Of a DNA stretch of 31,512 nt, positions 70 through 23,552 are shown piece by piece. The stretch spans positions 1 through 31,512 of the forward strand of contig JBHHXN010000050.1 in NCBI GenBank assembly GCA_046757025.1. Reading direction: 5' to 3'. The notes below the pieces were generated by a model that worked only from the letters and a program-made list of their open reading frames with translations, made no database searches and was not told the origin of the DNA. The position numbers and the translations under genes were made by a program. The stretch comes from a bacterium. Its GTDB lineage: Bacteria > Zhuqueibacterota > Zhuqueibacteria > Oceanimicrobiales > Oceanimicrobiaceae. Each line of letters begins with the position of its first letter. The stretch's first letter is position 1.

Positions 70-1611
70 TCAAGGTATTTTAAGAAGAATTATCGTCCCA
101 TGTTTTGTTTCGATACTATCCACGGCCATTCCGGTTTTCAGGCTCGTCGTTTGCAACTGGTCAAAGAGACCTCGATGCAGGTACAATTCATTTGACCGCG
201 AAATCAAGTTGCGATTCCGTATTTCAGGTGAAATTGAAAAACACTCAAAATGTTCCCATAAGAAAGGAAGTCGGCTGATCACCACTACCTGCTCGGGCAA
301 CGATCTTGACCAATTCTGAATTTGGGCATGTTCAAGCGCCGGACTGGTGTTCTGTTCATTAAATTGATTCCACACTTCCTCTCGATTTGGTAGCAAAATG
401 AAATAACCGGCCAAAACAGCCGTCATCATCCGAACACGAAAGCAGTTTGGTGATATTTTTGAAAGAAGAACTGCAGCCATCACCGACAAGCCGGCCATTT
501 GAAGCAAGAAAAACCGGCTACCGCCGGCGACATCGTACCGGCCGACTGAGTAAAATAATAGCAAAACAAAGTGTGAAACTGGAATCAACATCCAGGCTAT
601 CCAAGCGGTGATAACATTCGATGGTTTTTCATTTCCACGTTGCCATTTAATATAAATCAAAAAAGCGATAGCAGCAAACAAAAGCATGGGCCAGGGGCTG
701 TATTTAATCATAAATTTTAAATTGCTCATTAAATTGGAGGGGAAATAGGTCATAGAAAACCGCGATTCGGGTAAATTCATCAGATAGTATTTTTTCAAGG
801 ATAACACATGGATGACAAAACTCAACAGGAGCGCTCCCCCGGTCATCAAAAATAGCGCAACGTGTCGATTTGAAAATTTGATTTGTGATTTTCGAAACAA
901 AATAAATAACGGCAGGGTAACGATGATGTTTTCCAACCGAATGTGCAGAGCGATGAAGCCGGAGATGAAAGCCACAACCATCCAATCGGCGCCATCACCA
1001 TTTTGATTTTGCGACCGGTAATAACTTTCGGTGGCTGCCCAGAAAGATAAAACGAGCATGAGCAAAGCCAACGGTTCAGAGGCTCCTGAGCGGTACCAGC
1101 CGCCAACCACCGGATGCATGCCGTAAAAGATCACAACCGCATGCCCTGCTAAACCATTAGCGGCCAATCTCGCTGTAAGCGCCATCATCAATAAGAGAGT
1201 CAGGGACTCACAAACCTCATTAAAAATCTTTGGCCCCCGTTCCGTCCCAGCCCACGCCACAAACGGCATCATAAAAGCAGGAAAGCCGATGGGCCACTTG
1301 AAAAACCGCACTTGTTTCTGGCTGTCCGCCCACGCTTTCGTCACCGTGCCTCCGTATCCGTGCAGCATATTGAAAGCCATATTCGCATAGACATCTTCAT
1401 CATAATATATGCGATGTTGTTTTGGATGCTTGACATGATTCCACCCAACCACCAAACCCCAAACCATAATTGCAGACAAAAAGTATTCCCAGGAGGAAAC
1501 GATTTTTTTTAGTAAATTCCTTTTATAGAAGATCAGGTACAGCAGCCAGATGGTCATGGTCAAAAGAGTCAGGCACAGTACCAGTAGGGTTGCATAATGA
1601 TAAAAATACAA
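70..1611 (-). CDS. Multi-pass membrane glycosyltransferase, GT-C fold (PMT/ArnT-like)
   Basis: 513 aa with many hydrophobic segments. An acidic motif YYDEDVY follows the N-terminal TM helices, as in GT-C enzymes, with SEPL and RLEN loop motifs. TTG start with GGGAG 9 nt upstream. Follows a GT2 gene. Confidence 0.7.
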   Translation of the reverse strand: MYFYHYATLLVLCLTLLTMTIWLLYLIFYKRNLLKKIVSSWEYFLSAIMVWGLVVGWNHVKHPKQHRIYYDEDVYANMAFNMLHGYGGTVTKAWADSQKQVRFFKWPIGFPAFMMPFVAWAGTERGPKIFNEVCESLTLLLMMALTARLAANGLAGHAVVIFYGMHPVVGGWYRSGASEPLALLMLVLSFWAATESYYRSQNQNGDGADWMVVAFISGFIALHIRLENIIVTLPLFILFRKSQIKFSNRHVALFLMTGGALLLSFVIHVLSLKKYYLMNLPESRFSMTYFPSNLMSNLKFMIKYSPWPMLLFAAIAFLIYIKWQRGNEKPSNVITAWIAWMLIPVSHFVLLLFYSVGRYDVAGGSRFFLLQMAGLSVMAAVLLSKISPNCFRVRMMTAVLAGYFILLPNREEVWNQFNEQNTSPALEHAQIQNWSRSLPEQVVVISRLPFLWEHFECFSISPEIRNRNLISRSNELYLHRGLFDQLQTTSLKTGMAVDSIETKHGTIILLKIP

Positions 1612-1730
1612 GTCCGTATTCTCCCGAATTTAAACCGATCAGTCGCCACTTAACTTTTCTTATTTGCTGAAAATGTCGTAACTTGTTTTGTGCTGCATGC
1701 CCGACGAAGCAGATTTCCCAGTAAAAATGC

Positions 1731-2444
1731 TCATTTTGCCAGACTGGTTTGATACGTATATCGCAAGCATTTGAAAAAGAAAGATAAGCCAGATCTAATA
1801 ACATGCATTTTGGACTGATCAGCCCGACGCCGCTGATAAAATAACGGTACTTCATGAAAGGCTAAATTTTTACTGGCAGCGCCGAACATAAGGTCGAAAT
1901 CGCCCCATCGACAATTTGAAGGCGGTAGGTCAAGAAAGTTCACTCTGGAAATGGCCTTGACGCCGCACAAAACATCCGAGATTTTTCGGCCCAGCAATCG
2001 TGACATCCAGAAAGCAAAAAAGAGATTTCCCCAGCGATTCAAACGGGGCATGGCGCCTTTTTCCATTTTATCGGCAAAGCGAGAGCCGAACACAAACCGA
2101 TTCGGGTCTTGTTTGAACAGGGAAACCACCGCGCGGAGACTGGCTGGCGCAATGGTTAGATCGGCGTCGTAGATTACGATGACATCGCATTCGATGCATT
2201 GTGCAGCGAATCGAACAGCCTGATTTTTACCGCCATTTTTTGGAAGAAAGAAAGCTTGCAAGCGGGGTGTAAATCGATTCTGCAATGTCCACAGCAATCT
2301 TCCGGTGCCATCGGTGGATGCGTCATCCACCACGACCACTCGATCAAACAGCTCCAAGGCCAGCAATTCAAAAACACATGCTTCAATGTTTTTAACCTCA
2401 TTGAAGCAGGGAACGATAACTGCAAAAGTAAGCTTCGGTTTCAT
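1731..2444 (-). CDS. Glycosyltransferase family 2 (polyprenol-phosphate glycosyltransferase, DPM1-like)
   Basis: Motifs VIVPCFNE, VVVDDASTDGT, NGGKNQA, DADL (DxD), GSRF, ISDVLCGVKA, EVPL. Confidence 0.9.
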   Translation of the reverse strand: MKPKLTFAVIVPCFNEVKNIEACVFELLALELFDRVVVVDDASTDGTGRLLWTLQNRFTPRLQAFFLPKNGGKNQAVRFAAQCIECDVIVIYDADLTIAPASLRAVVSLFKQDPNRFVFGSRFADKMEKGAMPRLNRWGNLFFAFWMSRLLGRKISDVLCGVKAISRVNFLDLPPSNCRWGDFDLMFGAASKNLAFHEVPLFYQRRRADQSKMHVIRSGLSFFFKCLRYTYQTSLAK

Positions 2445-2643
2445 GACTTAAACCATTTTACCCGGTGGAATAACATTCGAACGATGCAGCGCCGTGGCCA
2501 GGACAAAATCGACAACGGTCGTTGCAATGCTAAGTGACAAAGATGCACGGCCACTCCACATGCAAGCTCAATTGGCAACCTCGAGAGTAGGGGTCACAAA
2601 GCCGGTTCTGATTTCCGGAGACGGCATCGCCGTTCTCAACGCA

Positions 2644-2659
2644 AGCCCCAAAAGGGGCT
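2644..2659 (-). terminator. Short GC-rich hairpin just downstream of precursor A1 (weak terminator or mRNA stabiliser)
   Basis: AGCCCC-AAAA-GGGGCT perfect 6-bp stem, 5 nt after the stop codon, with no strong U-tract. Confidence 0.35.
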
Positions 2660-2664
2660 ATCCA

Positions 2665-3201
2665 CTAATTGGGGTACCAGTAGGAGACCGTTCTTCCGCC
2701 TTCGGTGTCACAGGTACATACCCGGTCGCAGGTGCAAACGGTATCGCAATCACATTGTCTAGTGGGGACGGTATCGCAGGTGCAGACCGTATCGCAGGTA
2801 CAGACGGTTTCGGTGCCAGGATAAGTACGATTTGTGGCAACGCAGTCGCAAAGGCATGTGGCGCCCTTTGGTAAAGGCTGGTCACAGGCAATGGTTTTTA
2901 TGGCTTTGCCCATGCGGCGGTCGGTTTGAGAGATATTTTGGGTATCGTAGCGTCGGGTGCGTTTTGAGCTTGAGCAGCCCGTACTCATGTTGGCCACGGC
3001 GGCTCCGCCAGCCACCGCTGCCGCAGTGGTGGAAAGCATTTTTAAAAATGCCCGCCGGGATTGCGAATCGCTTTCACGCCGGTCAACTATTTTTAGAATT
3101 TTGGCTGGCTCGCGATTTTTTTCTCCTTTGGCCGGTTGGATGAGATGATCGGGTGCTTGGGCAGGGTGAGATCGATCTACTTTTTTTTGTTTATCAATCA
3201 T
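2665..3201 (-). CDS. Cys-rich putative rSAM-modified precursor protein A1 with twin-arginine signal
   Basis: 178 aa, GGAGG RBS. SRRAFLK followed by an Ala/Gly-rich stretch and GC. CLCDC plus five CxCD repeats, 15 Cys, C-terminal SYWYPN. Paralog of 3356..3832 and downstream of four rSAM genes. Confidence 0.85.
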   Translation of the reverse strand: MIDKQKKVDRSHPAQAPDHLIQPAKGEKNREPAKILKIVDRRESDSQSRRAFLKMLSTTAAAVAGGAAVANMSTGCSSSKRTRRYDTQNISQTDRRMGKAIKTIACDQPLPKGATCLCDCVATNRTYPGTETVCTCDTVCTCDTVPTRQCDCDTVCTCDRVCTCDTEGGRTVSYWYPN

Positions 3202-3355
3202 TGTTCCTCCTCACAAAGCAAACACAAAAAATGTTTATCCGCTCGTTTTTATTTTAACAACGTAATAAAGGCCAAATTTGGCAGCCAATATTTAAGAACC
3301 TGATAAACTGTGAGCCTGCACAAATTGCCATTCACCAGTGAATTACAAAACCGCT

Positions 3356-3832
3356 TTAGTTGGGGTACCAGTAACTTCCACCACCGCCACCTTCCGAATC
3401 GCAGGTACAAACCCGGTCGCAGGTACAAACGGTATTGCACGTGCACACCGTGTCACATCTGCATGTTTGATAGGAGTGGCTTGTGGCTACGCAATCACAT
3501 AAACAAACTGCCCCTGCAGGCAAAGGATCGCTACAAGGCATTGATTTCACAGAGCTCCACTGCGATTCTCTTTGCGTATCATACTCACTTTCCATCGGGT
3601 TCGAACAACCCTGGTTGATACCAGAAACCGCCGCGCCACCAGCTAATGCCGCTGCAGTGGTGGACAGCTTTTTCAAAAAGTCCCGACGCGTTTGCGAATC
3701 ACCCTCACTTCTATTAACAATATTTAGAATCTGAGCCGGTTCTTTCGCATTTTTGTCCTCTAATGGTTTGATAGTGTGATCCGGAGGCGACTGTTTTTGC
3801 TGTCGGTGCGATTTGTTGTGTTTTTTTGCCAT
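3356..3832 (-). CDS. Cys-rich putative rSAM-modified precursor protein A2 with twin-arginine signal
   Basis: The ORF track starts at 3844, but the ATG at 3832 (MAKK) has GGAGG 5 nt upstream. TRRDFLK followed by an Ala/Gly-rich stretch and GC. CLCDC plus four CxC(D/N) repeats, 13 Cys, C-terminal GGGGGSYWYPN. Confidence 0.85.
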   Translation of the reverse strand: MAKKHNKSHRQQKQSPPDHTIKPLEDKNAKEPAQILNIVNRSEGDSQTRRDFLKKLSTTAAALAGGAAVSGINQGCSNPMESEYDTQRESQWSSVKSMPCSDPLPAGAVCLCDCVATSHSYQTCRCDTVCTCNTVCTCDRVCTCDSEGGGGGSYWYPN

Positions 3833-3938
3833 TTTTTCCTCCATTATTTAAGGTGTTATGATAAAAACTTGTTCTGTTATTTCGAGGTGTACACTACTGC
3901 TGTAGTTCTTTCAGTAAGAACAGTTATCCTCAAGCGCA

Positions 3939-4031
3939 GTCTTTGCGAGCGATCCAACTGAGCGGGAGAGCGAAGCAATCTCCTTCCCCTGTATCTGGAG
4001 ATTGCATCGTCACTTCGCTCCTCGCAAAGAC
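3939..4031. repeat. Palindromic intergenic repeat element (REP/RPE-like)
   Basis: Terminal IR GTCTTTGCGAG...CTCGCAAAGAC with inner IR GCAATCTCC...GGAGATTGC. Related sequences at about 20305-20370 and 27221-27468. Confidence 0.8.
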
Positions 4032-4049
4032 GGGTTGTACTTAGAAACT

Positions 4050-5477
4050 TTATTCGGTTGTCAGGATCTTCTCCTTCCTGTTCTGGGTCGTTGAAGACAC
4101 CTGACGAGATCGAAACATTTCACTAAACCAGGCCCGGACCGCCAATTTATTCACCTGACACCGGAAGCCTCCCTCTCCTCGGTCATCTGTTTGTAAAAGA
4201 CACACATCCGGACAGTCCCTGGCACAATGGTAAATGTTCACGCAATCGAGGCAGCGCCGGGGGATGCGTGCCGCCTGCTGTCGCAACTGCGCCACACGTG
4301 GATGATTTAGTGCAAAGCCGGGGTCTGGTTGAAAAATTTCTTCCCCGATTTTCATGCTTGGTCCATTTGAGCTGCGGCTGTCCACGGTTAAAAAGCACAC
4401 CGTAGCCGTTCCATCCGGCGTAAGGTGCAGCACATTCCGAAACAGGTGACAGTATGGACCATGAATCTCCTCGGTTCGAACGCCCGACATGCTCAGGTTG
4501 GCGCCCATGGAATGCGCAGTCTTTTGTGCCTCCACAAAAGATTCGACAAACTCCCGGGCCGCTTGTTTCTGAAAACCTTCGGACCTGGAATGGTTCGTCA
4601 AGTAAACCGGCTCGAACCGAATCGTTTTCGCTTTGAATTCACAGCAAAATAACGCGACGATGTCTTTTTGCCGGTGAAAAGAATTCGGCGTGATCGTGGC
4701 TCGGATGGCGAACGGAACGCCTCTTTGAGCAAACAGATTCGCGGTTCGCTTCACAATTTGAAAGGTCGGTTGACCGTTCATCATAGGCCGCTGATCATTT
4801 TGAATATTTGCCGGACCATCGCACGAAAGACCGATGAGATTGAAATGGTCGGCAAGCCATTCGGCTCGGTTTTTCGGTAGAACGCCATGCGTGGCAATGT
4901 ATGCCCACCATTCAAGCCCATATTCGTGGGCGATTTTTCTCGTGCAGGCGACGATAGCTTGCAAGAGCTTCCAATGCAGCGTGGGTTCGCCGCCGCCGTG
5001 CAAAACAAGCGTAAAACGTTTGTTTTTTTTCTGACAGATTTTCGCCACCGCATGCGCGGCAGTTTGAACGGTCTGTTCGTTTATCACCGGCAGTTTTGAA
5101 TCCGCACCGTGGCGAATAGTATTCTGCGAAATACCCTGTTCCCCACAGCGGCCATTTTCATTTGCCGCAAAACAATAGCGGCAGCTCAAGTTACATTTAT
5201 TACTGAGATAGACGGTCAGGCATTCCGGCGTAAACGGCGCACTGGCCAGTTCCTGCCATCGCGATTTTGCTGCGGCAGCCGCCTCGATCAATTGAGACGC
5301 GGCCGCGGGTAATTCTAATCCTGCTGGCGCCGGCAGATGATTCAAATAGCCGGCGAATCGCTCTGCTTCCGCAGGGGAGAGCCATTGCGGACGCCCCGGG
5401 GCGTAGGCCAGATACCAGTATCTTTTTTTAATTAAAAAAATGGGCAGATCACGATGTAGCTTTTTGATTTTCATCAT
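4050..5477 (-). CDS. Radical SAM/SPASM-domain peptide maturase (rSAM-4)
   Basis: CNLSCRYC motif, HGGGEPTL, LSCDGP, and a C-terminal Cys cluster C..C..CLDC-x5-CARDC..C. The likely start is the ATG at 5477, overlapping the upstream TGA (ATGA); the ORF track extends to 5567. Confidence 0.9.
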   Translation of the reverse strand: MMKIKKLHRDLPIFLIKKRYWYLAYAPGRPQWLSPAEAERFAGYLNHLPAPAGLELPAAASQLIEAAAAAKSRWQELASAPFTPECLTVYLSNKCNLSCRYCFAANENGRCGEQGISQNTIRHGADSKLPVINEQTVQTAAHAVAKICQKKNKRFTLVLHGGGEPTLHWKLLQAIVACTRKIAHEYGLEWWAYIATHGVLPKNRAEWLADHFNLIGLSCDGPANIQNDQRPMMNGQPTFQIVKRTANLFAQRGVPFAIRATITPNSFHRQKDIVALFCCEFKAKTIRFEPVYLTNHSRSEGFQKQAAREFVESFVEAQKTAHSMGANLSMSGVRTEEIHGPYCHLFRNVLHLTPDGTATVCFLTVDSRSSNGPSMKIGEEIFQPDPGFALNHPRVAQLRQQAARIPRRCLDCVNIYHCARDCPDVCLLQTDDRGEGGFRCQVNKLAVRAWFSEMFRSRQVSSTTQNRKEKILTTE

Positions 5478-6865
5478 CCAACAATGGCGTTTAATGAAGT
5501 GTCTGCCGTGGCCGCTTTCAGCGTATGAAAGATTTGATCTTTGGTCAGCTCCTGGTTTATGTAACAACGGTCCGGCGCCTGCGGGTAGAGTTGTCCGCCT
5601 TCACGGGCTGATTTGGCAGGGCAATCGCCAGCACAGTGGTATTTGCAAAAACATTTTGAACAAAACGGTTTGTTTTGAACGGTTAATCCGTACAATTTTT
5701 TTCTTCGTTCCTCATCGATAACCATTTTTCTTGCGTTTCGGTCGAAATGGCCGTAAACAAACAGACTCGATAGCGGGTCGTCGAGGTCGAGTACTTCGAA
5801 GCAGCTCGTAATGATGGCGTTCGGGGTCACGGCGCAGGAGTTGCCAGCGGCTTCGCAGAAGATGTTTGACAAGACGCCAAAGCGGGCGCCCGAATAAGAA
5901 AGATTGCGGCCGAAGCGCATGGCAATCTTTCGAGCTTTTCTGAAACAGGTGACAAAATCCCGTGCTGCCGGCGATTTGAGATCGGATTCGATGGCGCGGC
6001 CTTGCGGAAACATCGGCTCGATTTTGATCTGCCTGGCTGCAAACTCTTCACAAAAAAACTGCACGATTTCCTCCAGTCGATGCACGCTTTTTGAGGTGAC
6101 CGTGGTGCGGATGCCGTACTGAAATCCGTTCCGATCAAAATCTTTGAGCGTTTCGAAAACGTGCATGAATGAGCCTCTGCCATTTGGAAGCGGTCGGTGC
6201 AGGTTCTGGATATCTTCGACGCCATCCACCGACACCGTGGCGCTGTCTATATTTTCAACAATCCAGCGGCGCTGTTTTGGATTCAAAATTCCCGCCAGGC
6301 CGATGGCGGTAGTGACTTTGATTTTATGCGGCGAGGTTATTTTGTGAGCATATTCCATGGTGTCTTTCAGCAGATTCCAGGCCGTGGCCACGTCTCCGCC
6401 TCCGTGAAAAATCACCGACAGGCGGCGGCTGCCAGCCTGACGCACATTCCGGCACACTTCATCCAGCACCCCGGTAACAACGTCAAACGGCATTCTGAGG
6501 ATATTTTTACCAGGAGTCAGCTCCCCACCCAGGGCATAACAATATTTGCAGCGCAGCGGACAATCGTTGGTGAGAAACAAGGTGACGCTTTGCGGTGCTA
6601 ACGGCGGTAGCGGGCGCGCGCGCCGCATTCGAGCCCGCTCCTTCCGGCTGTCAAACAACATGTCGATAAATCCTGAATTCACCCCGAGCTCGGCAATGGC
6701 AACTTTGTCGCCCTGTCGGGCACGGTAAAGCAGGTTGACGAAACGGGCGTTGGTTTCCAGCACGATCCCTTTGAGCGGTAAATAAAGGACATAGCGATCA
6801 TCCTTAGAAATACAGAAAACATCTTCAAACAACGACGCTGGTAATTTTTTATTTGCAGAATGCAT
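5474..6865 (-). CDS. Radical SAM/SPASM-domain peptide maturase (rSAM-3)
   Basis: CPLRCKYC, VSVDG, SPASM-type FC..TSC..CSKCFCKYHCAGDC..RC, GAGG RBS. The GGE motif appears as GGGDV. Confidence 0.9.
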   Translation of the reverse strand: MHSANKKLPASLFEDVFCISKDDRYVLYLPLKGIVLETNARFVNLLYRARQGDKVAIAELGVNSGFIDMLFDSRKERARMRRARPLPPLAPQSVTLFLTNDCPLRCKYCYALGGELTPGKNILRMPFDVVTGVLDEVCRNVRQAGSRRLSVIFHGGGDVATAWNLLKDTMEYAHKITSPHKIKVTTAIGLAGILNPKQRRWIVENIDSATVSVDGVEDIQNLHRPLPNGRGSFMHVFETLKDFDRNGFQYGIRTTVTSKSVHRLEEIVQFFCEEFAARQIKIEPMFPQGRAIESDLKSPAARDFVTCFRKARKIAMRFGRNLSYSGARFGVLSNIFCEAAGNSCAVTPNAIITSCFEVLDLDDPLSSLFVYGHFDRNARKMVIDEERRKKLYGLTVQNKPFCSKCFCKYHCAGDCPAKSAREGGQLYPQAPDRCYINQELTKDQIFHTLKAATADTSLNAIVG

Positions 6866-6879
6866 GAATACCTCATTCG

Positions 6880-7887
6880 TTAATTGGCAGTCATTCTGAT
6901 GGTATTTTGTAATTCTCCGGTTGACACGTTAAATTCAATTCGTCGATAACGCCGCATGGAAGCTGCGAGACATCCGCCGCTGCATTTATTTTGTATCATC
7001 CAGGTGCATTCAGCACAGTACTGGTGGAGCCTCACTTGACGATCGTGGGCTTGTTTTCTCGCGTATTGTGTTCGCAGCCACACGGCATTGTGTTTTTCTG
7101 GTAAAGGCAAGTTCACGTGTTTGAACAAGGGATAGCAGGAAATCGTCTGGCCGTTTGCAAGAATATCGATAATTGGGCTGCACGTTAACCCGACCTGACG
7201 CGCACCCATACCCAAATACTCCATCGCGCCTTCCGGGAACATGCAGGGCACCCAGCCGCAGTCGAAATCGATGGAAACGCCTCGCTTCCGGGCACGCACA
7301 GCAAATTCCGTCGCGCGCAGGCCAACTTGCGGGTAATGGTTTGGATGCAGAAATTCATTCCGACTTTCGGGATCCGGGTGAGAAAGACCGAGCCGCACGC
7401 ATTTAATCAATCCGTATTCCTGAATCAGATCGAGGATGAAATCAAGCTCAATCCCCGGACTAAAAATATTGATCCCCGGCATGACACAATTTCCTAGTTG
7501 TTTGCACAGTTCACGCTGTCGGGCATGCTCGGATGGTTTGCCTTCCTGTGGATGAAGAAGATTCAACAGCAGTTTCAGTTTACGGCCTTTCATTTTTTTC
7601 AGTGCATGGAGCACTTTGTTCGGCACCAAGCCGCCGGTAAAAATCAACAGTCGCATCTGGCGCGCCAATGCAATCTGAATCATCTCCAGAAATTGCGGAT
7701 GCAGCGTGGGTTCGCCTCCTAGCAGGCGAACCTCATTTATGCCGGAGCGCTGCAAAAAATGTAAAGCGCGTTCATATTGTGTTAGCGACATGAAACTTTG
7801 CAAATCCGGCAACTTACCTAATTTCTCCATTGCAAAACAGTAAGAGCAGGCGCGATTACATTTCGATGTGATGGAAAGATTAGCCAT
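6880..7887 (-). CDS. Short radical SAM protein with C-terminal SPASM/twitch-type Cys cluster (rSAM-2)
   Basis: CNRACSYC at residue 10, LGGEPTLHP, DCGWVPC, C..C..CAEC-x7-CSGGC. No N-terminal extension; overlaps the upstream RRE gene by 8 nt. Confidence 0.9.
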   Translation of the reverse strand: MANLSITSKCNRACSYCFAMEKLGKLPDLQSFMSLTQYERALHFLQRSGINEVRLLGGEPTLHPQFLEMIQIALARQMRLLIFTGGLVPNKVLHALKKMKGRKLKLLLNLLHPQEGKPSEHARQRELCKQLGNCVMPGINIFSPGIELDFILDLIQEYGLIKCVRLGLSHPDPESRNEFLHPNHYPQVGLRATEFAVRARKRGVSIDFDCGWVPCMFPEGAMEYLGMGARQVGLTCSPIIDILANGQTISCYPLFKHVNLPLPEKHNAVWLRTQYARKQAHDRQVRLHQYCAECTWMIQNKCSGGCLAASMRRYRRIEFNVSTGELQNTIRMTAN

Positions 7888-8164
7888 GGTTTTCCTCCCT
7901 CACTAAAAATCCCATGGCAAACCACTCATGCAAAGACTCCAAAAGCAATCTTTCTGCGTCCGGCTCATCGAGTGTGGCTATGTGAGCCAGCATGCGCACC
8001 GCCACCGGCAGGCGGTAACCACGACTCACCAAGTCCCAAACCGCGGCTTGCGGGTATTCTATGTGCAAGTGTTTTTGCGAACCTTTCACAAGCAGCAATC
8101 CCCGTCTTTCGACAACCCACCGAACTTCGGGCGCCACCTTGAATTTCTCGGGTGAATTCGTCAT
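7880..8164 (-). CDS. Stand-alone PqqD-like RiPP recognition element (RRE)
   Basis: 94 aa with a beta-strand then helix pattern typical of PqqD (AAVWDLV...LAHIA...AERLLLESLHEWFAMGFL); located between rSAM genes. Confidence 0.7.
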   Translation of the reverse strand: MTNSPEKFKVAPEVRWVVERRGLLLVKGSQKHLHIEYPQAAVWDLVSRGYRLPVAVRMLAHIATLDEPDAERLLLESLHEWFAMGFLVREENHG

Positions 8165-8184
8165 TTAAAAGCTCACTTTATCAA

Positions 8185-9639
8185 TTAACCAAAAATGCCG
8201 AAACCCTCTGCAATTAAAGCGCCAGAGGGCTTTTGCTCATTTGAATTTGTGTGTGCGGCTTCTCTGAATGTCTGTCCCATGAGTGAAACGGCATCCCTGT
8301 CATGGAAAGCCAGTTTTCTCATGGCGGTTCGGTTTTGCAAAAGTTCCTGAATCAATTCTTCATAACCAAGTTCGCTCAACAGCAGGCAGGCCGTGATGAT
8401 GCGCGTTTGAATGCAGAAATCGTCGTATTCCAACGAACGATCTGGAAAACTGTGGTGGACATGGCAGCCGCCGGCGCACGTCCACTGGCAAAAACAATCT
8501 TCACACAGCGGCTTTGCCATCGGCAGTTGCCGCACTCGATCGAGGGCGGCGTAATCGATATGTCCTGTGCCGTCAGCGTTGAACTGCCCCACATCCATGT
8601 TCTGTCCGCGCTGCAACCAATCTTCCTGCGGCAAATAACATGCGCTGGCGCGACCGTCCGCCGACACAATCAAAGCGTCGGTTCCCACCGGACAAAAAGA
8701 GATGCGGCTTTTGGCGATGTCCACTGCGGCATTGATGACTTTGATTCCCAGCTTACGGCCAGTTTTGATCGCTCGCATAAAGTTTATCGCAAAGTCGTAC
8801 GGCCTGGGTGGGGTGAGTCCGGCTTTTGTGGAAAGCTCCCCCGGAGTAAGCGGTTCGAAATTCACCACCACCGGATTGAACTCCTGGTACATCCAGCGAA
8901 CGATGGCCTCCAAATCGTGCACCGAATCCTGCGTCACGCAAACGCGCAAACAAAGTTGGACGGGTTTAGTGCTCAAACTGCGAGCCGTTTCCACCACGAG
9001 ATCAAAAGTACCCTGGTTATTCATGGCGGGTCGGTTACGGTTATGCGTATTTTTGAAACCGTCCAGCGACAGCACGATGGCATCGAAATAATCGCCAATA
9101 AAGACGCTTCGGCTTTTACTAAAAACACCGTTGCTGGAAACATCAAAAAAGGGGATCAGGTCGTTCTGGGCGCAGACGTAGCGTGTGCGGTGTACCACGA
9201 TGTCAACCAGCTCGGGGGCAGTGAAGGGCTCCCCACCAAAGAAATGTACACGAAAATATTTTTTACCGCTTTTCTTGAGCCTCTCAGCCATCCAGTCGAT
9301 GGCCGTTATGGCAATCCGAGGATCCATGTTTTCCCGCACCGAGGTGGGTCCGCCGAAATTGCAATAAACGCAATTTATGTTGCATCCTCTCGTGGTGATG
9401 ATGCCGAGAAATGACGGACAGATTTCACCTTTCAAAGGCGAGGGTTTTCGAAGTGGTTTCGTTGCCAGATCACGATATAAATTTGCCAGCTCGGCCGCAC
9501 CCTCAGAAAAATGACCCTGACGAAACTCTGCGGCAGCCGTATTGTTGAGCAGGGCGAAAAGGTCGCAGAGGGGTGCAAAGAGCAGCCACTTGTCCATTAT
9601 CGGAATTAAAAACACCCCATTTTGAGAAGATTTCAGCAT
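8185..9639 (-). CDS. Radical SAM/SPASM-domain peptide maturase (rSAM-1)
   Basis: CNINCVYC, FFGGEP, SSNG, LSLDG, SPASM FCPVG..SAC..CEDCFCQWTCAGGC..FC. Confidence 0.92.
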   Translation of the reverse strand: MLKSSQNGVFLIPIMDKWLLFAPLCDLFALLNNTAAAEFRQGHFSEGAAELANLYRDLATKPLRKPSPLKGEICPSFLGIITTRGCNINCVYCNFGGPTSVRENMDPRIAITAIDWMAERLKKSGKKYFRVHFFGGEPFTAPELVDIVVHRTRYVCAQNDLIPFFDVSSNGVFSKSRSVFIGDYFDAIVLSLDGFKNTHNRNRPAMNNQGTFDLVVETARSLSTKPVQLCLRVCVTQDSVHDLEAIVRWMYQEFNPVVVNFEPLTPGELSTKAGLTPPRPYDFAINFMRAIKTGRKLGIKVINAAVDIAKSRISFCPVGTDALIVSADGRASACYLPQEDWLQRGQNMDVGQFNADGTGHIDYAALDRVRQLPMAKPLCEDCFCQWTCAGGCHVHHSFPDRSLEYDDFCIQTRIITACLLLSELGYEELIQELLQNRTAMRKLAFHDRDAVSLMGQTFREAAHTNSNEQKPSGALIAEGFGIFG

Positions 9640-9650
9640 GCTAATCGGGT

Positions 9651-10118
9651 TTATTCTAATTCTTCAATTTCATTCGCGGGAATACAAATGCGATGTTGAA
9701 TTAGTTTGAAAAACACATTATTAACCTCCCTCCGGGCATTCTCGATATCGATTTGGAAATGGTTAGCCACCTCCTGCGCGGTATTTTCAATAGAAACGGT
9801 TCCTCCAAATCGCGCCAGAATAAACTCGATCACCTCGCTGGCCTCAAACAGATTCACTTCCGTGCCTTTCTCAAGGTGCCGGGCTTTGATCGCGGTGGGC
9901 TCCACGATCAAATTGTATTCCGCCAAGATGGCAGGTTGAATTTTTGCAATAACTTTGTCAGGAAAATTGAAAATCTCTGAAAGTTTCCTCTGGCGAACAC
10001 CCCGCATTTCATCAAACAGAGATGTGGCTTCGGCAAGAAAGGAACGAAAAAATCGACGACGATTGACTTTTTTTTCGATGAGTGACATGGCGCAAGGTGT
10101 TTTTAATCGGGTGCTCAC
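9651..10118 (-). CDS. Protein with C-terminal PqqD/RRE-like domain and N-terminal RRxFF motif
   Basis: The C-terminal EFILARFGGTVSIENTAQEVANHFQIDIENARREVNNVFFKLIQHRIC resembles PqqD helices; the N-terminus has NRRRFFR. The start is either GTG 10118 or ATG 10088 (MSLIEKK). Confidence 0.65.
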   Translation of the reverse strand: MSTRLKTPCAMSLIEKKVNRRRFFRSFLAEATSLFDEMRGVRQRKLSEIFNFPDKVIAKIQPAILAEYNLIVEPTAIKARHLEKGTEVNLFEASEVIEFILARFGGTVSIENTAQEVANHFQIDIENARREVNNVFFKLIQHRICIPANEIEELE

Positions 10119-11771: not shown

Positions 11772-12761
11772 TCAAGGAGACACCTCCGTTCCCAAACTTA
11801 GTTTCTCCGCATTCACTAGCGCCTGACTGGCAGCAGCTAAATCCTGTACTGCGTTGCCCACGGATTTAAAAAAAGTGATCTCCGTGTCAGAGGTACGGCC
11901 CGGTTTTGTGCCAGCCGCGATTTCGCCGATTTCCGCATAAACATGATCGGTGTCGATAAGTCCCGCCTGCAGCGGCTGCAGCAAATCGCCGGCTTCGCGC
12001 AAACACGACGGCCGGTGATCGACGATGACTTTCGCCTGCTGCACGGTTTCCACCGGAATCTCGGCCATGTCCGGGCGGTAGGCGCCGATGCCGTTGATGT
12101 GTACGCCTGGCCGCAAATGTTGATGCCAGAAAACCGGCGTCGTGGCGGTGGTTGCGGTACAGATTATATCCGCATGCTTCAGCAAATCCAACTCATTTGG
12201 CACTTCAATTGTGATCGCTAATTTTTTCTGCATCTCCCTGGCAAATCTCACCGCCTTTGAGGGATCGACGTCGAAGACGAAAGCCCTCTCGATGGTTCTG
12301 ACTGCGCACACGGCTTCGAGCTGCGCGCGACCCTGTACGCCGGCGCCAAAGATGGCGGCAACCCGGGCGTCCGAACGTGCCAGCAGATCCGTGGCCAGTC
12401 CGGAGGCGGCACCGGTGCGCAGGGCCGTCAGATATTCGCCATCCATCAATGCCAGCGGTTGGCCGGTGACGGAATCCAAAACCACTATCATGGCATGAAT
12501 CAGCGGCAGCCCATTGGGCGGGTTTTCATCCATGATGGACACAATTTTGACGCCAATCTTGCGATTTTCTTCAAGGTAGGCTGGCATGAACAACACCCGG
12601 CCTTTTTCCTTTGGCACCTCCAGGTTCATCCGAACCGGCACCACGGCCAGCCCGGACGAAAGCTGCACAAAAGCCTCTTTCATCAGGGCGATGGCCTCTT
12701 TCAGGGACAGCGCTTTTTTGACGTCTTCCCTGGAAAGTACGCGAATGGTTTGATTTGTCAT
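11772..12761 (-). CDS. Ornithine cyclodeaminase/mu-crystallin family protein, probable delta1-pyrroline-2-carboxylate reductase
   Basis: [35 protein letters not shown] and [10 protein letters not shown] motifs; clustered with a trans-3-hydroxyproline dehydratase. Confidence 0.85.
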
Positions 12762-12809
12762 TGAACTTTCCTTAAAGAAAAGGGGTGCAGAGAATAAAAT
12801 GATTCACAA

Positions 12810-13320
12810 CGCGACAAAGCCGCAAACAGCAATTGAATCACAGAATTCCAGACGCAGCCTTTTGACACAATAAATAATTAAACCACGGATTGACCCGGAT
12901 ACGCACGGATGAATGCCTATTGTGAAAAATAATAGACGAATTCATAAAGCTAAAAATTTTAAATGTACTTACAACCACATTTATTGAAACTGTGTTTTAT
13001 CCGTTCTACAAACCTGCAATGTTGTGTTTTTTTTACTAAGTTTCTGAGTGGACTCTGGTTGCCAAATATCTGTACAGCGTGAAAGCCATTAACGCAGAGG
13101 CGCGAAGGACGCAGAGGTTCGCAATGATTTTTGATTTTACTTGGATTATTCACAAATCAGGATTTTACGCTCAAAATCGAAAAACTGAGTACGGAGCATT
13201 TTTAAAATAGTCCTGTTTTTTATTTAAATTATTTCTTTTTTCTCTGCGGTCCTCTGCGCCATCGGAGTTTTATGCGTTTAACATTCTGGTCGCGGCTTTA
13301 CAGCGCGGTGCAAATCCGTG
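12810..13320. repeat. Nested palindromic repeat elements in a long intergenic region
   Basis: AAAGCCGCAAACAG (about 12816) pairs with CTGGTCGCGGCTTT (13286). CACGGAT-like repeats at 12881-12910 pair with ATCCGTG at 13314. ACGCAGAG repeats at 13091-13116 pair with CTCTGCG repeats at 13242-13258. Confidence 0.6.
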
Positions 13321-13451
13321 TCTAAAATATTTTAAATAGTTAGTTAGTCAAAACATTGTCATAAAACAATAAACTGCAGATTAGTATTACAGAATTTGGA
13401 TAAAATGTTTTTACTCTTTGGCGACTTCATCCTCATATTTATGATGTTGAA

Positions 13452-14840
13452 TTAGCTTGATGCTAATTCCTCGACCTCGGCAACGGTTTTTGGAATAGGC
13501 TTTCCCAGGATTCGACATCCTGTGTCCGTTACCAGCACGTCCTCTTCGATGCGAATGCCGCCAAACTCTCGGTACTTTTCCACTTCCTCATAATTAATGA
13601 AATCTGTAAATTTCTTTTCCGCCCGCCATCTGTCCATCAATTGCGGAATAAAATAGAGCCCCGGCTCCACGGTGATGACATAGCCCGGCTGGAGTCGTTT
13701 ACCCAGCCGCAAAGAGCGCAGTCCGAACTGCTCGCTGCGTTGGGTTTCCTCGTCGTATCCCACCAGGTCTTCGCCCAGCGCCTCCATGTCGTGCACATCC
13801 AGTCCCATCATGTGCCCGAGCCCGCACTGAAAAAACAGCGCATGCGCCCCCGCTGCCACCGCCTCTTTGACATTGCCTTTCATCAGTTGGTTATCTTTTA
13901 GTCCCTGTGTAAGATGTTCACAAGCCAACAGATGAATGTCTTTGAATTTGGCACCGGGCTTCACCGCGTCGATGGCAAACTGCAGCGCATTGTAAACAAT
14001 TTGATACATGGTTTTCTGCAGATCGGTGAATTGACCGGAGACCGGTATAGTGCGCGTGATGTCGCTGGCATAGTGCCAAGCCGAAGCCGCGCCGCAATCG
14101 TTCACCACCATATCGCCGGCATGCATGGTGTTGCCGTGGTAGTGATTGTGCAAGGTTTCCCCGTGTACGGAAAAGATAATGGGAAATGCCAGCTCACCGC
14201 CCCGGGCATGCGCCAGACCCGCCATCATACCCGCGATCTCTCGTTCGATCATGCCTGGCTGCGTTTGGCGCATGGCGGTGGTGTGCATTTCATAACTGAT
14301 GTCGAGAGCGGCATCGATTTGAGTAATCTCCTCCGACGATTTGACCGAACGCTGATCGACAACGATTTCGACCAGCTCGTGCGATACGGAATGATCGACT
14401 TGCGTGGGAGTCATGCCGGAAATTTGACTGAGTAAAATTAAATTTTCTGCGCGATACAACGGTAAAAAATGTATTTTTCTTCCTTTTTTAAGGGCCTTTT
14501 GTAATTCGATCTCTAACTGCTCGAACGGCGCGCTTTCTGCCACGCCCACTTTTTCGCTTTCTTCGCGCAAAAGCGGCTGCGGACCCGTCCAGACGATCTC
14601 TTCCACGGTCGCATCGTTGCCAAAAAGAACCTGCCGGTTTTCGTCTACATCCATCACCGCGGCGAGTCCCGGCGAATCCAACCCCCAGTAGTACAAGAAG
14701 GAGCTATCCTGCCGAAACGGATAAGCGTTGTCGCGGTAGTTTATAGGGCTTTCCTGGTTTCCCAAAAAGATCAGAATTCCCGAATCAATTTGTCGCATTA
14801 GATTCTGTCTTCGTTCGCTGTAAATTTTAGCATCAAACAT
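13452..14840 (-). CDS. Xaa-Pro aminopeptidase/prolidase (M24B)
   Basis: FRQDSSFLYYWG, LHNH, DCGA..YASDITRT, GHMMGLDVHD, TVEPGLYF, GIRIEED; GGAGG RBS. Confidence 0.92.
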   Translation of the reverse strand: MFDAKIYSERRQNLMRQIDSGILIFLGNQESPINYRDNAYPFRQDSSFLYYWGLDSPGLAAVMDVDENRQVLFGNDATVEEIVWTGPQPLLREESEKVGVAESAPFEQLEIELQKALKKGRKIHFLPLYRAENLILLSQISGMTPTQVDHSVSHELVEIVVDQRSVKSSEEITQIDAALDISYEMHTTAMRQTQPGMIEREIAGMMAGLAHARGGELAFPIIFSVHGETLHNHYHGNTMHAGDMVVNDCGAASAWHYASDITRTIPVSGQFTDLQKTMYQIVYNALQFAIDAVKPGAKFKDIHLLACEHLTQGLKDNQLMKGNVKEAVAAGAHALFFQCGLGHMMGLDVHDMEALGEDLVGYDEETQRSEQFGLRSLRLGKRLQPGYVITVEPGLYFIPQLMDRWRAEKKFTDFINYEEVEKYREFGGIRIEEDVLVTDTGCRILGKPIPKTVAEVEELASS

Positions 14841-14881
14841 GTCGCCTCCGGTTGTCGGTTATTATTGGATTGATTTATACA

Positions 14882-15670
14882 TTAAGCTAGACCGCCGCCG
14901 TCCACCACCAGATGGGCGCCGGTGACCCAACTGGACAATTTACTGGCAAAGAAAAGAACCGCATTGGCCACGTCCTCCGGCTGCCCCACCCGATTGAGCG
15001 GCCGTTTCGCCGCCTCCCGCAAAAACTCATTTTGGTCGATGCCCAGCTGCCGGGCTTCGTTGTGCAGCAATTCGGTTTCCACATCCCCGGGACAAACACA
15101 GTTCACGCGAATTTGGTGTTTACCGTGATCGATGGCCATGGCACGCGTCAGATTGAGCACCCCGCCTTTGGCCGCACAATAGGCAGCAGCCTTAGCGCCG
15201 CCTTTTAACGACCAGCCCGAACCCGTGTTGATGATGCTGCCGCCGCCGTTTTTGATCATGTGTGGAATAATCTGTTTTGATAGCAGATAGATTGATTTCA
15301 GGTCGGTATCCACCACCCGATCCCATTCTTCTTCGGTCAATTCAAGGACGTTATTGCGACGGATAACGCCGGCGTTGTTGAACAGAATGTCTATTTTGTT
15401 GAAGCGGTGAAGGATCTCATCCGTGACTTTTTCACAGTCCGTTTTTGAAATAACATCGCAGAGAAAAAAGTGCGCCCGGCCGCCAACATCTTGAATCTCT
15501 TTTGCAACCTGTTCGCCAGAGCTGACGTTGACGTCTAACAAAGCCACCGTAGCGGCCAATTCTGCAAATCGTATGGCGGTAGCGCGACCAATTCCGGAAG
15601 CGGCGCCAGTCACAACGGCTACTTTGTCTTCTAATGAAATGAGCTGCGTCGCTCGGGTTTGGGTGTTCAT
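14882..15670 (-). CDS. Short-chain dehydrogenase/reductase (SDR)
   Basis: TGAASGIG, NNAG, YCAAK catalytic motif, IRVNCVCPG. Confidence 0.92.
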   Translation of the reverse strand: MNTQTRATQLISLEDKVAVVTGAASGIGRATAIRFAELAATVALLDVNVSSGEQVAKEIQDVGGRAHFFLCDVISKTDCEKVTDEILHRFNKIDILFNNAGVIRRNNVLELTEEEWDRVVDTDLKSIYLLSKQIIPHMIKNGGGSIINTGSGWSLKGGAKAAAYCAAKGGVLNLTRAMAIDHGKHQIRVNCVCPGDVETELLHNEARQLGIDQNEFLREAAKRPLNRVGQPEDVANAVLFFASKLSSWVTGAHLVVDGGGLA

Positions 15671-15709
15671 ATAATTTACTCCAAAAGTTAGTCAGAGTTC
15701 GTAATCCGC

Positions 15710-17035
15710 TCAAAAAATTTTGGCCAGCGCTTTTTCAACAGCCGCCAACGTCACGGCCACATCTTCTGCGGAGTGCGCCAGACTGACGATAGAATGCAAA
15801 ACAGCCGAAGGTGTGGTGTACACCCCCTGCTCAAACAAGGCCAGCACCAGACGCTGGTATTTCGCCCGGTCCACAAACTGGCAGAACTCCCGGTAATCGC
15901 GGATGGCGGGCTTTTCAGTAAACATAATTTGCAGCATGGGCCCGACGTTTTGCACGATAGCCGGAATTTTCTTTTCCTTGAATAGGTTGCGCAAACCGTT
16001 ACAAAGTTTATCTGCGATCTGCCAGATATGTTTGAACGCCGCCCCCTGGTTTTCATTTAACACCTGTAAACAAGCGCGGGTAGCGTGCAGGCCGATTCGT
16101 GAAGCGTTCTGCGTACCGTAGTGCAGCACCCCGCCCCATGTCAGGGCTTGCATAATTTCAGCTCGACCAACCAAACAGGCCACCGGCAAGCCGCATCCCA
16201 GGGCTTTGCCAAAAGTCGAAATGTCCGGCTGCAGATGGTAATATTCCTGGCAGCCGCCGGCCGCCACGCGAAAGCCGGTAACGGTTTCATCCAGAATGAA
16301 AAGAATATTGTTAGAACGAGCCAGCTCCTGTAACGCTTGCAGATAACCCGGGTCGGGTGGAATGACGCCCATGTTGGCCATGACGCCTTCGGTGATGATG
16401 GCCGCGATCTGGCCGCGATCGGTTTCTATGGCCCGCTCTACCGCGGACAGATCGTTCCAGGGCAGGACGATGGTGTCTGCCAACGCATGCCGATTCAAAC
16501 CTGAGCTGTCCGCGATTTTGATGGGATCATGAGGATGCCCCAGAGAAACCACGGGCTGTGGATTGGAGTTGACCAGAAAGTCATCATACCAGCCGTGGTA
16601 GTGTCCTTCAAATTTGATAAATTGTGGTTTGCCGGTGTATCCTCGGGCCAGGCGAATGGCGGCCATGGCGGCTTCGGTGCCCGTGTTTGCAAATCGCACC
16701 CGTTCGGCGCCAGGGATCATCTTTTGTATCAATTCCGCCACTTCGATTTCGATTTCGGTGGCCGCCGCAAAGTGCGCGCCGCTGATAGCCGCTGCGCTCA
16801 AGGCTTGCGCCACCCGCGGATGAGCGTGTCCCAGGGGCAGCGCACCGTAAGCCATCATCCAGTCGAGGTAACGATTGCCATCGACGTCGTAAATGTGCGC
16901 GCCTTCCCCGCGTTCGATGAACAGCGGATACTCGCCGTAATTCACCGGCCCCCTGGAAGCCGAGCTGCCGCCTTCGATCATGACTTTGGTGGCGCGTTTA
17001 AACAGGTTTTTGGATGTTTGGGTTAAATAGGTCAT
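15710..17035 (-). CDS. Class III PLP-dependent aminotransferase (glutamate-1-semialdehyde aminomutase-like)
   Basis: DVDGNRYLD, LGHAHP, NTGTEA, FEGHYHG, ILDETVTGFR, FGKALG. The likely start is ATG 17035; the ORF track uses TTG 17059. Confidence 0.88.
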   Translation of the reverse strand: MTYLTQTSKNLFKRATKVMIEGGSSASRGPVNYGEYPLFIERGEGAHIYDVDGNRYLDWMMAYGALPLGHAHPRVAQALSAAAISGAHFAAATEIEIEVAELIQKMIPGAERVRFANTGTEAAMAAIRLARGYTGKPQFIKFEGHYHGWYDDFLVNSNPQPVVSLGHPHDPIKIADSSGLNRHALADTIVLPWNDLSAVERAIETDRGQIAAIITEGVMANMGVIPPDPGYLQALQELARSNNILFILDETVTGFRVAAGGCQEYYHLQPDISTFGKALGCGLPVACLVGRAEIMQALTWGGVLHYGTQNASRIGLHATRACLQVLNENQGAAFKHIWQIADKLCNGLRNLFKEKKIPAIVQNVGPMLQIMFTEKPAIRDYREFCQFVDRAKYQRLVLALFEQGVYTTPSAVLHSIVSLAHSAEDVAVTLAAVEKALAKIF

Positions 17036-17100
17036 TGGATATTCCAGTTTGAAGTGCAACGAACTGAGAAAATAAATTTATCAAAGCAGTCATTTTTTAC

Positions 17101-17137
17101 TTGATCGATACGTATGTTATCATTATATTTTTACGTA
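17101..17137 (+). promoter_or_regulatory. Sigma70 promoter of the TA operon with two TACGTA palindromes (putative autoregulatory operator)
   Basis: TTGATC (17101-06), 17-nt spacer, TATATT (17124-29). TACGTA at 17109-14 and 17132-37. AGGAGG RBS follows. Confidence 0.6.
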
Positions 17138-17155
17138 TAAATATTTAAGGAGGTA

Positions 17156-17407
17156 ATGATGAATACAAAACTCACGTTAAAACTCGATAAACAAGCCATT
17201 GAGAGCGCAAAAGAATATGCACAGAAAACCAATCAAAGTCTATCTATTTTGGTTCAAAATTTTTTTAATGTCATAGCTGCAAAAGTTGATAATCAAAATG
17301 ATGATATTTCACCACTTGTGCAAGAATTATCTGGCATCATTCATTTAGAAAATAACATTGATCTTAAAGAAGAGTATCATAAACATATCAACGAGAAATA
17401 TTCATAG
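17156..17407 (+). CDS. Antitoxin, ribbon-helix-helix type (DUF6364-like)
   Basis: MNTKLTLKLD..IESAKEYA....SLS.LV pattern; 1-nt overlap with the downstream PIN gene. Confidence 0.8.
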   Translation: MMNTKLTLKLDKQAIESAKEYAQKTNQSLSILVQNFFNVIAAKVDNQNDDISPLVQELSGIIHLENNIDLKEEYHKHINEKYS

Positions 17408-17832
17408 TGCTTAAAATCTTTATTGATTCAGACATAATATTGGATCTACTCGCAAAACGAAATCCACACTATGATTATGCAGCCAGGTTATTTACGTTAG
17501 TCGAGAAAAAGCAAATAAAAGCGTACACTTCACCTCTGGTTTTTGCCAATATTCACTACTTGCTCCGTAAATTAACCTCAAATGAACAAGCGAAACAAAA
17601 CCTACGCAAACTCAGGACTCTGGTTAAAATACTTTCAATAGATAAAAAAGTAATCGATTTATCTTTATTTTCAGAATTCAAAGATTTTGAAGACGCAATT
17701 CAATATCATACTGCAAACAATAACGGTTTAAAATTTTTGATCACCCGTAATAAATCGGATTATAAAAATACTAAAATCACTGTGTGCACGGCTGAGGAAT
17801 GTTTAAAAATGTTTGAAACTTTAAAACAATAG
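17407..17832 (+). CDS. PIN-domain (VapC-like) toxin
   Basis: IFIDSDIILD, DFEDAIQY and LITRNKSDY PIN motifs. Confidence 0.88.
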   Translation: MLKIFIDSDIILDLLAKRNPHYDYAARLFTLVEKKQIKAYTSPLVFANIHYLLRKLTSNEQAKQNLRKLRTLVKILSIDKKVIDLSLFSEFKDFEDAIQYHTANNNGLKFLITRNKSDYKNTKITVCTAEECLKMFETLKQ

Positions 17833-17934
17833 CGATTCAATTTTTTGACTAAATCCAACAATTTCGATTTTGTTAACCTAACACCCAAATGTCCTCAAAA
17901 TGCATGAATTCTATTTGCAAATCATTCAATACCT

Positions 17935-19071: not shown

Positions 19072-19195
19072 TTTTTCCTGGCCCGGACCAGCCGGGGCTT
19101 TATTTAAGTGAAAAGGTTCCTATTTCGCTGTTGGCGGTTGGTTTTTAGCTGTTGGCTTTGAGCTTATTGAGTACCGTCCTTAAAAATTGACAAAT

Positions 19196-20254: not shown

Positions 20255-20304
20255 AGTCACGATTGCGATAACTTGGAGCTGTCCAAATTGATCTAATGAG
20301 TGGA

Positions 20305-20370
20305 AAGCGAAGAATCCCAACTAAGGGTGTATGTCAGGAGATTTTTCGTCGCTTTGCTCCTCAGAATGAC
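20305..20370. repeat. Partial palindromic repeat element of the 3939-4031 family
   Basis: AAGCGAAGAATCCC...GGAGATTTTTCGTCGCTTTGCTCCTCAGAATGAC. Confidence 0.6.
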
Positions 20371-20426
20371 ATCAAAAAGTTTCTTTTTGTAAAGCCACAG
20401 AGTTCGATTCAATGAAATGCATTATA

Positions 20427-21179: not shown

Positions 21180-21196
21180 CGTTTACTCTGTGTCTT

Positions 21197-23281: not shown

Positions 23282-23371
23282 GTAACCCCGTCGATTTGAA
23301 TTGAATTCATCTCGCATGTTATTTTTCCTGTGAAAATGATAAACAAACATTATTAAGGGTGTTCACGCTTT

Positions 23372-23552
23372 AGAGCCTGTGTGAAAAGTCAACTTCCGGG
23401 CTTTTGTCATTCCCCGCTTTGCGAGACAGGCAGGAGGAATCTTTTTAGTTTTGAAGTATAGTGGTGTTTCTTAAAAAGATCCCGCGGTTACGGGATGACA
23501 ATAATGGCACATCGGATTTTTAGCTGCGATATCACTTTTTCACCCAGTCTCT
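23372..23552. repeat. Composite palindromic element (outer IR plus inner GTCATTCC..GGGATGAC unit)
   Basis: Outer AGAGCCTGTGTGAAAAGT / ACTTTTTCACCCAGTCTCT; inner 23406-23499 GTCATTCC...GGAATCTTTTT...AAAAAGATCCC...GGGATGAC. Confidence 0.7.

Follow-up and report, generated by a model that had tools for sequence, protein, structure and literature searches.

The two precursors encoded in the window (the whole 31,512-nucleotide stretch of DNA analyzed here, which is an entire contig) belong, judging from sequence, to a multi-phylum family without a name, marked by a cysteine ladder with a YWYPN tail, radical SAM enzymes, and RRE proteins; very likely, these precursors are exported by Tat. The precursor layout is conserved across the family, the precursor genes are linked to radical SAM genes, and two associated proteins, X4 and a Tat-signal RRE, have RRE folds. 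These data point to a variant of the radical-SAM RiPPs with a probable Tat exit.

Precursors and cassette in the window

Both precursors lie on the minus strand and share one layout: a leader, a Tat signal, Cys76, a polar linker, a Cys ladder, and a YWYPN tail. Precursor A (3356–3832; 158 aa) has the ribosome-binding site GGAGG ahead of its ATG at 3832, and precursor B (2665–3201; 178 aa; 52% identity to A) has GAGGAGG. An earlier note on this DNA had reported the twin-arginine motifs SRRAFLK (3060–3040, minus strand) and TRRDFLK (3691–3671, minus strand); both are read at these positions, inside ORFs B and A, respectively, and the run LSTTAAA(L/V)AGGAAV followed by G-C-S is likewise present in both precursors. 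The n-region length of about 48 residues given there also holds, with RR at residues 49–50 and the first Cys at residue 76 in A and B alike. The Tat signal of A (3605–3691) consists of TRRDFLK, a 25-residue uncharged run, and NQG-C76, an atypical lipobox; that of B (2974–3060) consists of SRRAFLK, a 24-residue uncharged run, and STG-C76. Both precursors thus display the features of a Tat substrate, S/T-R-R-x-F-L-K plus an h-region of 24–25 uncharged residues, and both exceed the 16.7-bit cut-off of the TIGR01409 Tat-signal model (26.9 bits for A, 21.6 for B). The placement of RR at residue 49 is unusually deep; the nearest Met lies 2–25 residues upstream in 26 of the 27 other Tat candidates of the genome. 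The ladder of CxC[D/N]xV repeats with its YWYPN tail (3359–3535 in A and 2668–2886 in B, minus strand) is the putative substrate of the radical SAM enzymes.

Residues 16–39 of the n-region carry PDHxIKP...EPAQILNIV in A (3716–3787, minus strand) and PDHLIQP...EPAKILKIV in B (3085–3156, minus strand), which, given their alignment and fixed spacing to RR, are candidate RRE-binding leaders. Across the family, this motif reads P-x-I-(F/Y)-x-(I/V), often preceded by PDxxLKP; its Pro lies 14–17 residues before RR in 115 of 133 cases and exactly 16 in 77, against a 4% chance of meeting the motif in a 30-mer. The motif also persists at the start of precursors that have no signal at all. Because the motif is conserved, holds a fixed distance to RR, and is retained in signal-less precursors, the n-region is likely a RiPP leader set ahead of an export signal.

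Upstream of the precursors on the minus strand lie genes for X4, four radical SAM enzymes, and a 94-aa protein. The enzymes comprise a radical SAM/SPASM protein of family R2 (8185–9639); an R1 radical SAM protein without an N-terminal extension (6880–7887); an R0 radical SAM/SPASM protein (5474–6865) whose top NCBIfam match, below cut-off, is the PapB family and whose best PDB match is 5wgg; and a second R0-type radical SAM/SPASM protein (4050–5477) whose likely start at 5477 overlaps the upstream stop. From PapB/CteB-like enzymes paired with a D/N-dominated ladder, we infer ranthionine-type Cys-to-Asp/Asn thioethers in the ladder. Downstream of the precursors are a GT2 glycosyltransferase (1731–2444, minus strand) and a multi-pass membrane protein (70–1611, minus strand) that clusters with a PMT_2-type (GT-C) protein; a tailoring role was weighed for both and dropped, since neither is a regular cassette member and each recurs in one other locus only. 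When 1041 ORFs were clustered, only radical SAM families, RRE-type proteins, and precursors recurred widely, and it is this grouping of precursors with radical SAM/SPASM enzymes and RRE domains that characterizes radical-SAM RiPPs. Additionally, three Bacteroidales loci contain a YcaO gene inside the cassette (L034:5572–7257, L055:4431–6038, and L062:13655–15337), which suggests additional backbone chemistry at these loci.

X4 (9651–10118, minus strand; 155 aa) carries an N-terminal RRxFF but no hydrophobic h-region. Its model has an RRE fold (pLDDT 84; the best Foldseek match, at E 1.9e-4, is 6jx3, a lasso RRE bound to its leader), and full-length homology links it to the Tat-signal RRE found beside signal-less precursors (hhalign probability 95.8). 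The RRxF motif occurs in 24 of 26 X4 proteins, one of which passes the full Tat test; X4 accompanies signal-bearing precursors in 23 of 26 cases under a strict filter, the remainder being cut or borderline. Retention of RRxF without an h-region implies that RR has another role here besides export, and docking or hold-back at TatC would be one guess. The 94-aa PqqD-like stand-alone protein (7880–8164, minus strand), which aligns with the Tat-RRE profile at an hhalign probability of 80, is a probable RRE for the next enzyme.

Distribution of the family and placement of the Tat signal

A degenerate DNA pattern for the ladder alone was used to scan 185,579 species genomes, so that the signal was not selected for; the pattern demands an exact CT/SC[DN]TVCT/SC[DN] repeat and therefore samples part of the family only. 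The scan identified 76 loci in Chloroflexota, Bacteroidota, Desulfobacterota, Myxococcota, Acidobacteriota, Cloacimonadota, Lentisphaerota, Bacillota, and other phyla, with no precursor ORF at 4 of the 76 and unrelated ladder ORFs at a few (L031, L032, L068). For the locus set, three duplicates were removed, and the window and a second cassette of the host genome (C209) were added. Seventy-eight 5′-closed ladder ORFs, including the two from the window and a few unrelated ones, were scored with a home-made Tat filter (not TatFind or SignalP) that demands R[RK]x followed by two hydrophobic residues, together with an uncharged 13-residue stretch whose mean hydropathy exceeds 0.8. Fifty-eight passed (51 RR, 7 RK), as did 3 of 209 neighboring radical SAM proteins and 3 of 1560 shuffled N-termini used as controls. 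Protein searching returned 41 relatives and profile searching 385 at E 0.001, with 150 of the 385 among the matches listed; a Tat-type signal is present in 142 of 178 protein matches, a set biased by a query that contained the signal. In many members, a WD40 propeller, an SH3 domain, or a Thr/Pro linker stands between signal and ladder. Loss of RR or Cys among homologs had been named in the earlier note as evidence against its Tat reading; both are kept across the family.

Two variations in layout were also observed. In the Chloroflexia loci L021, L028, L040, and L044, the ladder is followed by an extra helical region of ~100 aa in place of the YWYPN tail. In L043, L045, L055, L056, L057, and L062, the short precursor is directly followed by a ~184-aa protein (with a similar gene at L050:350–880) that has a Sec-like signal and no Pfam family, appears outer-membrane barrel-like by eye, and is a possible surface partner.

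The proposal that housekeeping Tat and a signal peptidase serve these precursors is supported by the host genome, which encodes tatC, two tatA/B, lgt, and two lspA genes, and by the lack of any recurring exporter. TatC is found in 47 of the 50 cassette genomes tested (50 of 61). The Cloacimonadota offer further support, as here the cassette brings its own tat genes into a group in which Tat is rare: TatC scores over the cut-off in 6 of 201 genomes, and the precursor profile matches 2 of 201. In both precursor-bearing genomes, tatA(B)C lies inside or heads the cassette and holds the genome's sole TatC match. In L050, tatA-tatB-tatC overlaps the radical SAM start and precedes the precursor; in L090, the order is tatA, tatC, X4, radical SAM genes, precursor. 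No cassette was seen in the flanks examined of the four other Cloacimonadota TatC loci. The TatC proteins of L050 and L090 are mutually closest (46% identity), and this tat linkage may reflect one transfer event. In the L005 genome, tatAC is on a different contig from the cassette.

Where precursors have no signal, the signal is typically found on the Tat-signal RRE, a protein of 135–175 aa that combines RRxF, an h-region, and an RRE-type domain and is encoded directly before the R0 enzyme. Of the 20 scorable loci whose precursors lack a signal, 18 encode it; the exceptions, L064 and L076, both belong to genomes in which no TatC was found, and their RR is degenerate or absent. Among 49 loci in which all precursors bear signals, it was scored once, as a spurious match inside an X4 protein. 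Eleven further signal-less ORFs comprise eight that are 5′-cut, mis-started, or at contig ends, one that is unrelated, and the same two real exceptions. RRxF is kept in 19 of 19 protein relatives of the Tat-signal RRE, and its model is RRE-like (best match TbiB1-leader, E 1e-3). On a quick radical SAM tree with one mislabelled carrier-type row (L098), carrier-type loci fall in about four places and do not represent 18 independent events. Complex prediction for a C209-type Tat-RRE (residues 42–146) with a signal-less leader (residues 1–46) gave a score of 0.01, which, coming without folded controls, is evidence neither way. Since the h-region is found on the precursor in some loci and on the RRE in others, as hitch-hiker export would need, the Tat-signal RRE probably attaches to the leader and takes the signal-less precursor out as a hitch-hiker. 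RREs as export carriers would be a plausible new role for this domain.

Several of these loci have additional features. The C209 cassette (L077:1772–5556) encodes a signal-less 118-aa precursor ending in YWHPN, radical SAM enzymes, a Tat-signal RRE (3570–4010), and, downstream, a PQQ-type propeller protein with a Sec signal. The precursor at L064:3206–3622, from a genome in which no TatC was found, has a single-Arg SRNFL and a clean LNGC lipobox, a possible switch to Sec. Large beta-propeller or TPR surface proteins with Sec signals, some of them with a type IX secretion tail, follow signal-less precursors in L019, L058, L059, L088, L096–L103, L105, L011, and L035, and are possible binding partners of the exported peptide.

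Proteases, exporters, and the predicted signal peptidase site

The earlier note saw no peptidase or ABC transporter in the cluster, and none was detected with Pfam or NCBIfam in the cassette (70–10118), in which three ORFs are without a significant family and to the left of which the contig ends. Two peptidases elsewhere in the window, of families M24 (13452–14840) and M28 (21197–23350), were set aside as members of a hydroxyproline/proline catabolic block (11772–31116), which a 1.65-kb gap without an ORF >74 aa separates from the cassette. This block contains a cyclodeaminase, an Xaa-Pro aminopeptidase, an M28 peptidase, two proline-racemase-family genes, and a D-amino acid dehydrogenase, along with KGSA dehydrogenase, DapA-like, GntR, and EamA genes. 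A 141-aa ORF in a low-GC stretch (0.31) of the window (17407–17832, plus strand) resembles a PIN-domain protein.

Pfam searches of 205 flanking proteins from the 65 loci (120–1700 aa, within the cassette or at most two genes beyond; the set excludes one giant protein and the WD40 cluster) detected neither ABC transporters nor C39 peptidases. Consistent linkage of a dedicated peptidase or exporter would have counted against the Tat proposal, and none recurs among these neighbors; about half of them have no Pfam family at E 1e-8, which leaves room for an unrecognized protease. Single, sporadic neighbors include peptidases of the M50 (in two related Chloroflexota loci), Mx, C11, and S9-like types and MFS transporters, and ABC-type genes lie 2.5–4.7 kb away in L029, L056, and L090. 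An S26 peptidase in L050, adjoining a HemN-like gene and three genes from the tat genes, was read as housekeeping and set aside. The host genome (94.8% completeness) yielded no C39 peptidase match. The missing protease is no evidence by itself, as the available part of one source describes RiPP clusters as often lacking their own and relying on proteases encoded elsewhere (PMC10885120).

Lipobox counts in the ladder set are based on 57 signals (the 58 Tat-type ORFs minus one mis-hit). A Cys lies 18–27 residues past RR in 45 of these, with G, S, or A at −1 in all 45 and mostly L, A, V, or I at −3. The 12 without a lipobox Cys are long forms, mostly propeller proteins, with c-regions that by eye resemble signal peptidase I sites. 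In the protein set, a lipobox Cys is found in 112 of 142 Tat-type members, including 78 of 85 short forms. The WD40, SH3, or Thr/Pro segments that separate signal from ladder indicate that the Cys following the h-region does not belong to the ladder. Lipidation of the family's products is thus quite likely, as predicted from these sites.

The lipid-anchored product suggested in the earlier note is therefore well supported family-wide, but it is the weakest step for the two window copies. Both have Gly at −1, with Ser (B) or Asn (A) at −3. The same note called both lipoboxes non-canonical, which is borne out for NQGC of A, an outlier whose −3 Asn occurs in 1 of 45 ladder-set and 1 of 112 protein-set members, each time copy A itself; STGC of B, however, falls within the family range, with −3 Ser in 2 of 45 and 10 of 112. 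The unusual −3 residues lend some weight to an alternative in which Tat export is real, but A and B are cut by signal peptidase I and freed as soluble periplasmic proteins, leaving Cys76 as a relic or a free thiol. Cys76 is at RR+27, four residues past the family mode of +23, and is preceded within a few residues by AVS/AVA sites potentially fit for signal peptidase I; a lipobox Cys is also missing from the 12 family members noted above. Even so, this soluble outcome is unlikely, as the four nearest sequences share Gly-Cys at this position, all 10 short-subfamily members with complete N-termini have G/S/A-Cys, −3 Ser has precedent among relatives, and other Tat-lipoprotein candidates of the host genome have similarly tolerant boxes (GLGC, SPAC, VFGC). 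Lipidation of the window copies at Cys76 is probable from these comparisons, with copy A falling below that general estimate.

Proposed maturation route and comparison with known systems

In the route proposed here, RREs would recognize the P-x-I-(F/Y)-x-I strand that lies ~16 residues ahead of RR and may shield the signal from TatC for as long as modification is under way, much like the signal-binding maturation chaperones of redox enzymes. Radical SAM enzymes would cross-link the Cys ladder in the cytoplasm, and the product would leave through the housekeeping Tat translocase; lipidation and cleavage at Cys76 would then yield membrane-anchored proteins of 83 (A) and 103 (B) residues. A single Lgt/LspA (or signal peptidase I) cut would take off leader and signal together, so no dedicated protease or exporter would be needed. 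The chain as a whole, from leader and radical SAM cross-linking to housekeeping Tat exit and trimming or lipid anchoring at Cys76, seems reasonably probable. A broader and more tentative possibility is that Tat is the route reserved for peptides and proteins cross-linked by radical SAM enzymes, with two interchangeable designs (signal on the precursor or on a carrier RRE); the leader–RR spacing would then serve as a checkpoint ensuring modification ahead of export, and leader and ladder together as a transferable tag for cross-linking exported proteins. The product might be, as a guess, a rigid, surface-displayed metal- or redox-active knot that WD40 and SH3 proteins also carry as a tail.

CxC repeats are capable of metal binding, and the ladder of an ordinary Tat lipoprotein could instead form a metal-cluster or disulfide domain that the radical SAM enzymes do not alter covalently. 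Within the DNA examined, 8 of 65 loci have no core radical SAM gene nearby, as this would allow; the other 57, however, have radical SAM families beside the ladder gene, the cassettes include RRE-fold proteins, the leader-like motif is kept even without a signal, and the residue after the second Cys is D, N, or H in 492 of the 527 ladder units in the protein set, as expected of acceptor residues, all of which renders an unmodified ladder improbable. Similarly improbable is that the RR-hydrophobic segment is a mere part of a long RiPP leader, with a product that stays internal or is exported by an unlinked transporter and protease: the long n-region, the RRxF of X4 without an h-region, and the unlinked proteases described for many RiPP clusters (in the part of PMC10885120 available) fit such a leader, but tatA(B)C lies within the cassette exactly where Tat is rare, signal and lipobox are kept ahead of unrelated cargo domains, RR is degenerate or absent in both complete loci (L064, L076) of genomes where no TatC was found, and the host genome has no C39 match.

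The proposed cross-linking in the cytoplasm followed by Tat export can be compared with several established systems. The PapB/CteB/SCIFF and CrpAC maturases (PMC13692751), which act on Cys-rich repeats, are the best family and structure matches of three window enzymes. Unlike PapB/SCIFF, the cassettes hold several enzyme families each and a Tat-lipoprotein layout, and all scores are far below the family cut-offs (PapB 102–113 bits vs. 340). The CXXX-repeat system (TIGR04114–04119) also pairs a Cys-ladder precursor with radical SAM enzymes, at a language-model similarity of 0.87 in the ESM Atlas, where all leads stayed under 0.9; however, the ladder here is a period-6 CxC[D/N]xV repeat with a YWYPN tail, TIGR04114 and TIGR04117 had no match, and TIGR04115 scored 52 bits versus a cut-off of 350.

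In QhpC/QhpD, as described in the available portions of two sources, a radical SAM enzyme with an RRE likewise reads the N-terminal leader of a small periplasm-bound protein; QhpD makes Cys-to-Asp/Glu thioethers in QhpC of quinohemoprotein amine dehydrogenase (QHNDH), whose beta-propeller partner recalls the WD40/PQQ-propeller cargo or neighbors here (PMC7876137, PMC13692751). That system, as far as the same portions describe it, relies on the protease QhpE and on ABC transport by QhpF, with a flavoprotein acting in quinone formation (PMC7876137, PMC13692751); none of these has a counterpart in the cassette, and QhpE, QhpF, QhpG, and the haem subunit were found neither there nor among the 205 flanking proteins. 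A quinoprotein (MADH/QHNDH-like) reading, raised by the Trp tail and the propellers, was set aside because no quinone-forming partner recurs, and remains a lead.

The RR motif, h-region, and lipobox resemble those of class II Tat substrates, the Tat lipoproteins, as outlined in the accessible part of one source (PMC13673990). Hitch-hiker export, in which a signal-less subunit leaves bound to a signal-bearing partner, is described in the available section of another (PMC10924467); here, in contrast to known hitch-hikers, a RiPP precursor would travel with an RRE as its carrier, a pairing for which no example was found in the open-access literature. The available part of an RRE survey mentions Sec signals only (PMC12710340), and the open-access literature yielded no account of the YWYPN tail motif, of radical-SAM RiPPs exported by Tat, or of RREs bearing a Tat signal.

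A parallel in export logic is seen in the bufferins and oxazolins, MNIO-modified RiPPs with Sec signal peptides, of which ~16% of Buf2 precursors are predicted lipoproteins according to the available parts of the sources (PMC11626156, PMC12452194). As in bufferins, so far as those parts describe them, a signal peptide on a Cys-rich, protein-sized precursor would stand in for a dedicated exporter and protease; whereas bufferins use Sec and MNIO enzymes, with no separate leader before the signal described there, the family here combines Tat, radical SAM enzymes, and a leader. Pfam and NCBIfam found no MNIO (DUF692) protein in the cassette or among flanking proteins, and the signal is RR-type. 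Macrocyclic peptides are expected to be poor Sec substrates, as stated in the part of the bufferin paper (PNAS) available (PMC11626156, PMC12452194), which is consistent with the use of Tat here. Sec-exported RiPPs, as exemplified by bufferins, were shown only recently; if the present reading is true, a Tat route with one signal-peptidase cut would bring surface lipoproteins within the scope of RiPP logic, and the leader and ladder together would provide an engineering handle for any Tat cargo.
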